A stretch of DNA of 64,000 nucleotides from Candidatus Heimdallarchaeota archaeon (GCA_011364965.1 RDOB01000008.1:55468-119467), one strand, 5' to 3'. Positions 1 to 3,555 are shown, counted from the first letter of the stretch. Numbers and translations are program-made. Notes: generated from the letters alone by a model not told the origin.

Positions 1-561
1 TAACAAAAAAATCAATGTAATAAATTCAATTGCTTGATTCTCTACCCAATATACGATGAATCCTAAAATGAGAACTCCATTGTAAAGAATGACTAGCTCA
101 GAGGGGAGCCGCTTTCGAAATATGAAAATACTTGGATAACGTCCAGAATAATACTTTTGAATAAGAAAAAGTATCAACAGATATGATGAAAGACAAAATA
201 CAAGACTAAATAAATTTAGGAAAATATAGATAGCCCCATAACCAATTAAATCTAAGGAAAGAGTCATATTCAGGAAAGAGGTTTGTAAGAGACCATCTAA
301 ACCAATGGTAGCAGTACCAGCAAGAATACTTCCTCCAATCCCAGTAAGAGTAGGGATGAGGAGGAAAATACTAGCTGCTAGAGGTGCATTATAGGAATGA
401 TAATAGCGCCACTCTTCAAAAATTTTAATTACAGAAACAATGAATAATGTAATATAAAGAATGGTCAGAGAAATTTCACGAGATTGGCTTGTAAGATATG
501 AAAGCAGAGCAAAAACAGAACCAATAACGAGAATCGAAAGAAAAGCATTTCTTTTAACCAA
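1..561 (-). CDS. Multi-pass membrane protein, 3'-truncated by window edge; last visible gene of the Ubl operon (absent from ORF track)
   Basis: Manual translation from TTG at 561: MVKRNAFLSILVIGSVFALLSYLTSQSREISLTILYITLFIVSVIKIFEEWRYYHSYNAPLAASIFLLIPTLTGIGGSILAG...FITLIFLL, open for 187 codons to position 1; about 5-6 hydrophobic segments; starts 12 nt after the JAMM stop, with AGGA upstream. Confidence 0.8.
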   Translation of the reverse strand, partial: MVKRNAFLSILVIGSVFALLSYLTSQSREISLTILYITLFIVSVIKIFEEWRYYHSYNAPLAASIFLLIPTLTGIGGSILAGTATIGLDGLLQTSFLNMTLSLDLIGYGAIYIFLNLFSLVFCLSSYLLILFLIQKYYSGRYPSIFIFRKRLPSELVILYNGVLILGFIVYWVENQAIEFITLIFLL

Positions 562-1936: not shown

Positions 1937-3184
1937 TTAATCCTCCAGTTTAAGATTTAGATACAGTTGAGTCCCATCTGCAAATCCTGTAACAAAAAGA
2001 GATTCATAATCTCTTAATTTGGCCTCAGAAATAGATAATGTCCAATCTAGCTCCTCTATGTTAGAGGAATCGATCCGAAAGATTGTCGGAGGAAATTCCT
2101 CATCAAAATCCAAGCTCTTCTCTTGAGAGAGGCAAATGATAAGCTCTTTTAACAGATAATGATGCTTAGCTTTCACATGATAAATAGGAGAACGCTTAGA
2201 ACCGCACATGGCACAATTAGTGTTGATTGGTTTTTCAAATTCGTAAAATTTGCCCGATAAACCGTTATAAATCATATAATTCAATTGGAGAGAACCAAGT
2301 TTTCGATCTTTATCTGACGTGTGGAGATGATGCAGAATTTTGACTGCTTCTTGTGATTGAAGAGAGGCCATGACTGCGTTAATAGTGATGACTGTGGGTT
2401 CATGATTGTCAACTATCTGAATAATTTGATCATTGGTGAAAGGAATAGCAGTAGGAAAGTATTCTGTGAGTAATTTATTAGCATAATCCCGCACTGTAGT
2501 AACTTCTGAAGCAACAAGGATATCAACAGGATGGTTGTGATCTTTTTCAAATTGGAGTTGCCCCTTTAGAATACAATGTGCTGGACGGCGAGGTTTTCCT
2601 ACTAAGGTACAGGCTCCAAGCTGATCTTGAGCTCGTTCAGTAAGTGGATCACATTCCAAGCAAGCATTAGTAAAAGGCCAAACAATATAGAGGTGACCAT
2701 TATAAGCGGCCGTACCTGCGTCAATAAGCGGTTTTTTGTTATGAACTGCCCTCCGATTCAATTCAGAACGAGCCTCAATAGAATCTAAACCAGCAATATA
2801 GAGATCAACCTCTTTATAGATTTTTGGAGGAAGATCTTGAAGAGGAGAGTTATATGCATCAATTCTGATAAAGGGATTAATATCACGGAGACGCTTAGCA
2901 GCATATTCAGCTTTCGATACTCCTTCTGGAGCTCCAATAAATAAAATCTGGCGATTCAAATTCGAGTATTCCACAATATCGAGATCAACAAGAACTAAAT
3001 GCCCAACACCGACCATAGCAAGATTTTTGGCAACTTCCACACCCAAACCACCGACTCCAGCGATCAGGACAGAGCTGCGTTTCAAGAGTTCTTGACTCCA
3101 GCCAGGAAGACGAAATTGTCGGTCAAAACGCTGCTTCTCAGCTTGACTAAGACTAGTACTTCCAAAATTGGACATTTTATTCAC
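1937..3184 (-). CDS. Ubiquitin-like activating enzyme E1 (ThiF adenylation domain + catalytic-Cys insert + C-terminal UFD-like domain; Uba3/Uba2-like)
   Basis: RFDRQ, GVGGLG, DLDIVEYSNLNRQILF, LDSIEAR, CLEC...CAMC Zn pair, ACTLVGKPRRPAHCI catalytic-Cys motif. Confidence 0.95.
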   Translation of the reverse strand: MNKMSNFGSTSLSQAEKQRFDRQFRLPGWSQELLKRSSVLIAGVGGLGVEVAKNLAMVGVGHLVLVDLDIVEYSNLNRQILFIGAPEGVSKAEYAAKRLRDINPFIRIDAYNSPLQDLPPKIYKEVDLYIAGLDSIEARSELNRRAVHNKKPLIDAGTAAYNGHLYIVWPFTNACLECDPLTERAQDQLGACTLVGKPRRPAHCILKGQLQFEKDHNHPVDILVASEVTTVRDYANKLLTEYFPTAIPFTNDQIIQIVDNHEPTVITINAVMASLQSQEAVKILHHLHTSDKDRKLGSLQLNYMIYNGLSGKFYEFEKPINTNCAMCGSKRSPIYHVKAKHHYLLKELIICLSQEKSLDFDEEFPPTIFRIDSSNIEELDWTLSISEAKLRDYESLFVTGFADGTQLYLNLKLED

Positions 3185-3198
3185 TTCTTAGACCGATT

Positions 3199-3555
3199 CT
3201 AGTACCCTGCAGTACTGACTGGGATGATTAAAACTTCCATTCCATCTTCTACATCATAGTTTGAAACTACATCATCAGAATCAAGAGTACGCCCACTAAT
3301 AGATAAATGAAAATCATTGGGGTCTAATCCAAAGATTTCCCCAATTGTAGTTTTTAACTCACTTACTGACATTTCAGGGTCAACTCTTAATTTTTCTAAC
3401 TTCTCTCGAGGCCCAATAGTGGAACGAAAGAATAAGTTCACTGATGCGCCTCGTGAGGGGGTTTGTTTTGGTGTTTTGGATTGGATGGGTCTTTCTGTTT
3501 CTTGAATTTCTTCATCTAATTCATCTAGCTCTTCAAAATCCTCATTCTCTGACAT
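3199..3555 (-). CDS. Ubiquitin-like protein (Ubl-2), precursor ending STAG-Y
   Basis: Beta-grasp pattern (SVSELKTTI, FHLSISGRTLDSDDVVSNYDVEDGMEVLII); acidic N-terminal tail; 14 nt upstream of E1. Confidence 0.9.
   Translation of the reverse strand: MSENEDFEELDELDEEIQETERPIQSKTPKQTPSRGASVNLFFRSTIGPREKLEKLRVDPEMSVSELKTTIGEIFGLDPNDFHLSISGRTLDSDDVVSNYDVEDGMEVLIIPVSTAGY

Follow-up and report, generated by a model that had tools for sequence, protein, structure and literature searches.

How does an enzyme that is built like the catalytic chain of a eukaryotic heterodimer work when no gene for its partner is in sight? This question is raised by a gene on the minus strand of a 64,000-nt stretch of DNA from Candidatus Heimdallarchaeota archaeon (GCA_011364965.1 RDOB01000008.1:55468-119467), which encodes an activating enzyme (E1) for ubiquitin-like proteins (Ubls); the whole stretch is called the window below, and nucleotide positions are counted from its first letter. 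Canonical eukaryotic E1s are asymmetric, since a dead domain, either in a partner subunit or fused in the same chain, supplies an arginine to the live one, and the rise of this asymmetry from symmetric MoeB/ThiF-like dimers is inferred, not observed. Our computational analysis favours, as the most likely form of the E1 of the window, a symmetric pair of identical chains in which both active sites are complete and the arginine would act in trans.

Arginine helix, ATP site and domain fold

The N-terminal helix of the E1 contains RFDRQ at residues 19-23. The second arginine of this motif, Arg22, is invariant together with Arg25 in the 53 family members on which all conservation values below are based. 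Arg22 aligns with Arg14 of MoeB and Arg21 of SAE1 (by alignment offsets) and with Arg57 in the inactive domain of human UBA1 (by the printed alignment), and the active domain of UBA1 has Gly453 at this position. The aligned arginines of MoeB, SAE1 and UBA1 are trans fingers established from structures, and in the NAE1-UBA3 and SAE1-SAE2 structures, as in those of MoeB and UBA1, the equivalent arginine acts in trans. This role has been restated for the eukaryotic E1s and for the bacterial enzyme BilD (10.1101/2023.09.26.559546). By its alignment, Arg22 is a candidate arginine finger that would act in trans.

The distribution of the arginine was read from 150 library-wide representatives aligned to the family profile. 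First, single-domain enzymes, with or without the catalytic-cysteine (Cys) domain, have the arginine in nearly every aligned domain, and a few of their alignments begin past the helix. Second, the dead N-terminal domains of UBA1-like proteins keep it (YSRQ). Third, where the helix aligns in the live domains of UBA1-like proteins, G, N, S, A or D stands in place of the arginine, except in P0176 and P0193, which retain it. At last, the UBA3-like (412-450 aa) and UBA2-like (560-704 aa) proteins are missing the helix as a whole. An arginine that is retained beside a live ATP site is therefore a signature of self-pairing.

Fused two-domain E1s of other Asgard archaea present both states of the helix within one chain. 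We found 21 clusters of them (P0122 and P0277-P0296; 730-878 aa), and most of the metagenome-assembled genomes (MAGs) concerned bear the label Lokiarchaeia, Sigynarchaeota or Promethearchaeota. In their first domain, [LIM]YARQ..KGW is present, but SNLNRQ and the Mg aspartate are lost. Their second domain has all catalytic motifs, the Cys segment and the zinc site; its helix, roughly K-x-K-x-Y-x-L-D in most members, has no RQ pair. The active half of P0122 is 34% identical to the E1 of the window over residues 30-364 and shares with it the Cys segment, the zinc site, the C-terminal domain and an upstream Ubl; unlike the E1 of the window, however, the fused proteins are asymmetric, with a dead and a live domain in one chain and the arginine in the dead half only. 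No description of fused two-domain Asgard E1s was found in the literature searched.

The fused proteins also have an acidic disordered N-terminus and a C-terminal UFD-like region (UFD, ubiquitin-fold domain) behind the live half. The gene for P0122 (locus L006, 1291-3693) is preceded by one for an 85-aa Ubl ending in QAGGC (351-608 of the same locus). Four further proteins have other two-domain layouts: P0200 (856 aa) has a live E1 half with the Cys domain first and a dead RTDRQ domain at 567-666, and P0207, P0233 and P0261 (462-477 aa) have a dead N-terminal RY[DG]RQ domain followed by a live domain that contains no aligned Cys-domain segment.

In the E1 of the window, the arginine helix is followed by intact ATP/Mg motifs (GVGGLG at 43-48, D67, SNLNRQ at 74-79, K91 and D134), which fit the active-domain pattern of the 150 representatives. 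G43, G45, G46, G48, D67, N75, N77 to Q79, K91 and D134 are invariant in the family, S74 and L76 are at least 90% conserved, and the four zinc ligands, C175, C178, C324 and C327, are also invariant. The Cys segment, ACTLVGKPRRPAHCI (residues 191-205; window 2570-2614), fits CT....P..PAHCI exactly, and its C192, T193, P198, R199 and H203 are invariant. In sequence alignments, it is aligned with the catalytic Cys segment of UBA1 and lies inside the aligned span of UBA3 (residues 31-358). The active domain of UBA1, UBA3 (over the same span) and UBA2 are the best matches of the E1 among solved sequences.

An AlphaFold model of the E1 from 53 sequences has a mean predicted local distance difference test (pLDDT) score of 88.2. 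The ThiF/MoeB core superposes on 234 of the model residues from 12 to 331 (VIA-align; Z ~30, root-mean-square deviation (rmsd) 1.8-2.2 Å). The ~86 residues that ThiF/MoeB leave unmatched are modelled as three helices (201-216, 225-242 and 251-259), which come after a flexible loop, the Cys loop (188-194) having low confidence in the model. With the full-length model, Foldseek returned UBA3 first (2nvu_B, 1.1e-26) and SAE2 next, and VIA-align gave Z 28.9 for SAE2 (364 residues aligned, rmsd 7.6 Å) and Z 26.6 for UBA3 (374 residues aligned, rmsd 8.4 Å). The rmsd of the whole-model alignments is high (8-14 Å) because the Cys domain and the UFD are at different angles, and the C-terminal domain was therefore folded by itself.

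Among Pfam families, only ThiF matched the E1 (E 3.1e-53, residues 30-324), with no Cys-domain or UFD family at E ≤ 0.01, and the UFD was for this reason, too, tested by fold. The isolated domain, modelled as residues 328-415 from 40 sequences, has a pLDDT of 89.7. Foldseek placed the UFD of UBA3 at the top (3fn1_A; 5e-4, TM 0.69, rmsd 2.5 Å), followed by the UFDs of SAE2. An exhaustive VIA-align run against 48,161 chains, which is independent of Foldseek, returned UBA3 and SAE2 UFDs as all of its top seven matches (Z 8.0-9.9 over 73-85 residues, rmsd 2.0-3.3 Å), and ubiquitin and other Ubl domains ranked lower (Z at most 7.8). By its modelled fold, the region of residues 329-415 is a UFD of the E2-binding UBA3/SAE2 type, for which binding of the conjugating enzyme (E2) itself is predicted. 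A preliminary description of the window, made from the sequence, had pointed to the N-terminal RFDRQ, an intact ATP site, a CT....P..PAHCI insert of about 80 aa and a C-terminal domain of about 85 aa ending in a beta strand. All four features are borne out by the analysis, the closing strand being modelled at 407-414, and a ubiquitin fold of the last domain, which it had supposed, agrees with the UBA3 and SAE2 matches.

Proposed self-pairing and the search for a partner subunit

Two copies of the E1 modelled together scored 0.77, 0.76 and 0.77, and the highest of three controls scored 0.00. Of proteins solved as same-chain pairs, 20 of 30 reach this mark, and of those solved as single chains, 1 of 23. 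At least 89% of the contacts are common to the runs, with a partner pLDDT of at least 80. The predicted interface is formed by the adenylation domain only, and brings residues 18-27 of one copy to the SNLNRQ loop (residues 73-78) of the other. Neither the Cys domain nor the UFD takes part in it.

For a partner, we looked in the host genome (2.97 Mb, 87% complete), which holds five ThiF-family genes, all with active-site motifs, and in related Asgard loci, 80 of which were fetched from the 211 found in a species-representative genome collection. Neither the operon nor the ThiF-family genes of the genome include a dead subunit of the NAE1/Aos1 type, and there is no extra ThiF-like neighbour in the 80 related loci, where the unassigned neighbouring open reading frames (ORFs) were read only in L038. 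The preliminary description had likewise seen no partner gene. Three of the other ThiF-family genes have an arginine helix of their own and live motifs, and encode a 349-aa MoeB-like protein, a 331-aa short E1-like protein and a 416-aa paralogous E1. The fourth encodes a 419-aa protein in a JAMM-E1-E2-like cluster, in which an N-terminal extension replaces the arginine helix.

Two of these paralogues, the 416-aa and the 419-aa proteins, have settings of their own. The 416-aa E1 is encoded in a second ubiquitin-like cluster of the genome (contig C13, L003:272-2697), together with a 266-aa protein that has an N-terminal zinc-ribbon-like CxxC pair and a 107-aa Ubl ending in KGG; the enzyme contains RFDRQ, SNLNRQ, a Cys segment (EPCSIVGVPRSREHC) and a C-terminal extension. 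On contig C16, the 419-aa E1-like protein, with its N-terminal extension of ~150 aa, is encoded on one strand (L005:267-3344) with a 321-aa JAMM-like protein and two small proteins of 151 and 135 aa that resemble non-UBC E2-like proteins, in a cluster like the bacterial-type E1/E2/JAB operons. The 331-aa protein, from the same contig (L002:1477-2472), has RYHRQ, SNLNRQ and CIEC...CIIC, a short crossover segment (KACTPFGE) instead of the helical Cys domain, and a C-terminal extension of ~70 aa.

Since no inactive ThiF-like gene was found and the E1 has its own invariant finger arginine, we infer that the enzyme has the fold of a UBA3/UBA2-like catalytic chain and not the quaternary form of that class, which includes an inactive arginine-donor partner. 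In the proposed homodimer, two identical chains would pair via their adenylation domains, as MoeB and ThiF do. Each chain would reach with its N-terminal helix into the ATP site of its twin and supply Arg22 there, so that both sites would be complete. In either site, the neighbouring Ala-Gly Ubls would be adenylated at their C-terminal Gly; the Ubl would next be bound to Cys192 as a thioester, before transthiolation to the adjacent UBC-type E2, recruited by the UFD. The E1~Ubl thioester and the transfer to the E2 are predictions made only from the neighbourhood, that is, from the adjacent UBC-type E2 and the two Ubls.

Several points weigh against the homodimer. A partner could sit in the missing 13% of the genome, or its inactive domain could have diverged too far for the ThiF profile to detect; there is a precedent in bacterial BilD, where annotation for a long time treated the inactive domain as an E2 family (10.1101/2023.09.26.559546). 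The two-copy score shows likeness to the solved MoeB/ThiF and E1 dimers, and may only echo those. The UFD families of Pfam gave no match, so that the UFD assignment rests on the predicted fold. Finally, the single-gene E1 of Caldiarchaeum subterraneum, to which we compare the enzyme below, does not appear by name among the named cluster members of 20 representatives, and the link to it is made by family description, an equivalent arginine helix being presumed.

The first alternative takes up the same precedent: the E1 would be the catalytic half of a heterodimer, with a paralogous E1 (the 416-aa or the 331-aa protein) or an unrecognised divergent inactive subunit as the partner. The closest solved relatives, UBA3 and UBA2, are obligate heterodimers, there are four other ThiF-family genes in an incomplete genome, and BilD demonstrates that inactive domains can evade profiles. 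However, every paralogue has live ATP motifs, with the arginine helix in three of the four and the N-terminal extension instead in the 419-aa enzyme; L003 and L005 stand in Ubl or E2 contexts of their own; and the related loci offer no additional ThiF-like neighbour, within the limits given above. An invariant Arg22 together with a live ATP site is what self-pairing enzymes show and what UBA3 and UBA2 do not, and the single-gene Caldiarchaeum E1 works alone in vitro (PMC5654768). We therefore regard a heterodimer as unlikely.

Less probable still is a monomer, in which the RFDRQ helix would be structural or would act in cis. The papers on the Caldiarchaeum enzyme do not state its oligomeric state, and the dimer described here is a predicted one. 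Against a monomer, the equivalent arginine acts in trans in all the E1-type structures named above and in BilD, the predicted interface is the conserved face of the adenylation domain, and loss of the arginine coincides exactly with the presence of a separate donor domain. The last alternative, a sulfur-carrier adenylyltransferase of the MoeB/ThiF/UbaA type instead of a protein-conjugation E1, is hardly tenable: although the MoeB and ThiF models head the NCBIfam list and the adenylation core superposes best on ThiF/MoeB, all models of these enzymes score far under their cut-offs (MoeB, the best, 124 bits against 266; ThiF 120 against 275), the E1 has the Cys domain and the UFD that those enzymes do not have, its gene sits among ubiquitin-family Ubls, a UBC-type E2, a JAMM protease and a RING protein, and the genome has other ThiF-family genes without the helical Cys domain (that of L001, and that of L002 with its short crossover). 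A plain MoeB/ThiF/UbaA assignment was rejected on the NCBIfam scores.

The operon and its host

The E1 gene is the third in a tight minus-strand series of Ubl-Ubl-E1-E2-JAMM-membrane protein (Table 1). It has two candidate starts, GTG at 3184 and ATG at 3175, and the stop codon of the upstream Ubl is at 3199-3201. The ATG start gives 412 aa, the length of a 100%-identical public protein (P0001), and is probably the true start; the residue numbers in this text are those of the 415-aa translation.

Table 1. Coordinates of the E1 gene, the parts of its product and the neighbouring genes in the window
Feature	Position	Strand	Basis or remark
E1 gene	1937..3184	(-)	415 aa from GTG 3184, stop codon included; ORF list and Pfam ThiF
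N-terminal helix, residues 14-29	3098..3145	(-)	RFDRQ = residues 19-23 = 3116-3130, from translation
Adenylation (Rossmann-type) domain part 1, residues 30-180	2645..3097	(-)	GVGGLG, D67, SNLNRQ, K91, D134, zinc pair C175/C178
Catalytic-cysteine domain in crossover loop, residues 181-262	2399..2644	(-)	Cys192 (2609-2611) within ACTLVGKPRRPAHCI
Adenylation domain part 2, residues 263-328	2201..2398	(-)	Dimer-interface helix 264-288 (predicted), zinc pair C324/C327
C-terminal domain, residues 329-415 (87 aa)	1940..2200	(-)	UBA3/SAE2-type fold in isolated-domain model
Ubl ending STAG, 118 aa	3738..4094	(-)	Pfam ubiquitin E 6.6e-07
Ubl ending STAGY, 118 aa	3199..3555	(-)	Pfam ubiquitin E 3.5e-07
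UBC-type E2, 175 aa	1407..1934	(-)	Directly downstream of E1; Pfam UQ_con E 1.1e-26
JAMM/MPN metalloprotease, 270 aa	574..1386	(-)	Pfam JAB E 7.5e-13; conserved neighbour
Membrane protein, runs off window	1..561	(-)	ORF list; conserved neighbour

A total of 529 proteins match the E1 at E ≤ 0.001, the best of them labelled Hodarchaeales or Heimdallarchaeota. Its closest relatives, 411-414 aa long and 72-82% identical, go under the labels Hodarchaeales, Hodarchaeota or Heimdallarchaeota, which makes the host an Asgard archaeon of the Hodarchaeales type. The 211 places with relatives include the long-public bins AB_125, B3_Heim and Loki_b32. In most of the 80 related loci, the order Ubl-E1-E2-JAMM, often followed by the membrane protein, is kept, and the E2 adjoins the E1. 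The homologue of the membrane protein in L038 (ORF 779-1861) has a C-terminal RING-like Cys/His cluster.

One group of loci differs in arrangement, and one contig in label. In L025-L049, which are of the Heimdallarchaeota type and ~50% identical (e.g., L038:1-5233), the E2, the JAMM protease and the membrane RING protein are followed by a gap of ~2.2 kb and then by the Ubl and the E1. In L038, this gap contains a second membrane protein and a lysine-rich disordered protein on the opposite strand, and no ThiF-like gene. An Asgard Ubl-E1-E2-JAMM contig (L084, DATKTP010000227.1) is filed under the bacterial MAG name Candidatus Deferrimicrobium sp., a label that is probably a binning error.

Known systems and evolutionary placement

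The E1 of the window belongs to the known E1-like family of Asgard archaea and Aigarchaeota, which was described between 2011 and 2017 (PMC3082918, PMC5654768) and which the preliminary description had missed. The E1-like protein of Caldiarchaeum was reported to have adenylation and catalytic-cysteine domains like those of UBA2 and UBA3 (PMC3082918), a description that a 2024 review repeats (PMC11354881). With one E1-like gene product, an E2, a small RING protein and Ub, Hennell James et al. reconstituted the cascade, and observed that the E1 binds its E2 on gel filtration; their model of the enzyme, based on the NEDD8 E1, has a ubiquitin-like domain at the C-terminus, and their E1 tree contains Asgard homologues (PMC5654768). 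The supplement to that paper distinguishes, in the one-chain model, an inactive Rossmann domain from an active one, and makes no mention of a homodimer. Like ours, the Caldiarchaeum E1 is the product of one gene whose operon (Ub/E1/E2/small-RING/Rpn11) also encodes a Ubl, a UBC-type E2, a JAMM protease and a RING protein, the two being likened by family description only. The operons differ in that the one of Caldiarchaeum has a small soluble RING protein and a Gly-Gly Ub precursor, whereas that of the window has Ala-Gly Ubls and a membrane-embedded RING protein. In the open-access literature searched, we found no statement of an oligomeric state, a homodimer or a trans arginine for archaeal E1s of this type, and the symmetric-dimer reading appears to be a refinement not spelled out before.

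Three further systems frame the enzyme. Human UBA3 (2nvu, 3gzn, 1tt5) is the best full-length match in sequence and structure, and shares the adenylation domain, CT...P..P.HC in a helical insert, the zinc site and the UFD. UBA3-like proteins differ, at ~26-30% identity, in having no N-terminal arginine helix, so that alignments begin at about residue 30, and in their dependence on NAE1/APPBP1. MoeB (1jw9) and ThiF (1zud) of E. coli share the core (Z ~30), the RxxRQ helix, the CxxC...CxxC zinc site and the predicted symmetric interface, but have neither the helical Cys domain nor the UFD, and serve sulfur carriers instead of an E2. BilD (8tyz; 10.1101/2023.09.26.559546) is, like the E1 of the window, a prokaryotic enzyme with a helical Cys domain of ~80 aa in the crossover loop and a four-Cys zinc site, and its partners are an E2, a Ubl and a JAMM protease. 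It differs as a single-chain pseudo-dimer in which an inactive domain gives the arginine and which has no UFD, whereas the E1 of the window has one adenylation domain per chain and a UFD.

In architecture, and in architecture only, the E1 of the window is intermediate between MoeB/ThiF, which are symmetric and have no Cys domain or UFD, and UBA3/UBA2, which are asymmetric and have both. Descent is another matter. In a FastTree analysis of 151 adenylation-domain columns from 174 domains, the live domains of eukaryotic UBA1, UBA2 and UBA3 group together (support 0.889), and the live half of the fused P0122 nests among single-domain E1s of the Helarchaeota type (0.976). The nodes that link the family of the window to the eukaryotic UBA1/2/3 group or to the P0122/Helarchaeota group have a support of 0.04-0.4, and no deep placement was drawn from the tree. 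The proposal of the preliminary description, a homodimeric intermediate between ThiF and the heterodimeric E1s, is thus supported in two of its parts: the homodimer, which is favoured on computational grounds by the invariant Arg22, the way the arginine tracks the donor domain, the missing partner and the two-copy model it had asked for (with the reservation about its likeness to solved dimers), and the architecture. Read as a statement on descent, it finds no support in the tree, whose deep nodes are unsupported.

It is conceivable, though we lean against asserting it, that this E1 family is a symmetric form of the canonical E1 type and represents the state before the split into active and inactive domains, each of two identical chains having a live ATP site, a Cys domain and a UFD and lending the other its arginine. 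Most public records say MoeB/ThiF adenylyltransferase, and the name of the gene should be ubiquitin-like-protein activating enzyme E1. If the enzyme is a symmetric dimer, the Cys domain and the E2-binding UFD would predate the asymmetry, and experiments that compare it with the fused Asgard enzymes could address why one of the sites was abandoned; the fused E1s make this evolutionary question more tractable than the gene of the window does alone. If the family does stand for that earlier state, both states would occur among Asgard archaea, the single-domain one in the Heimdall/Hodarchaeales-type genomes and the dead-plus-live fusions in those labelled Lokiarchaeia or Sigynarchaeota, and the origin of E1 asymmetry would be open to study with living proteins.

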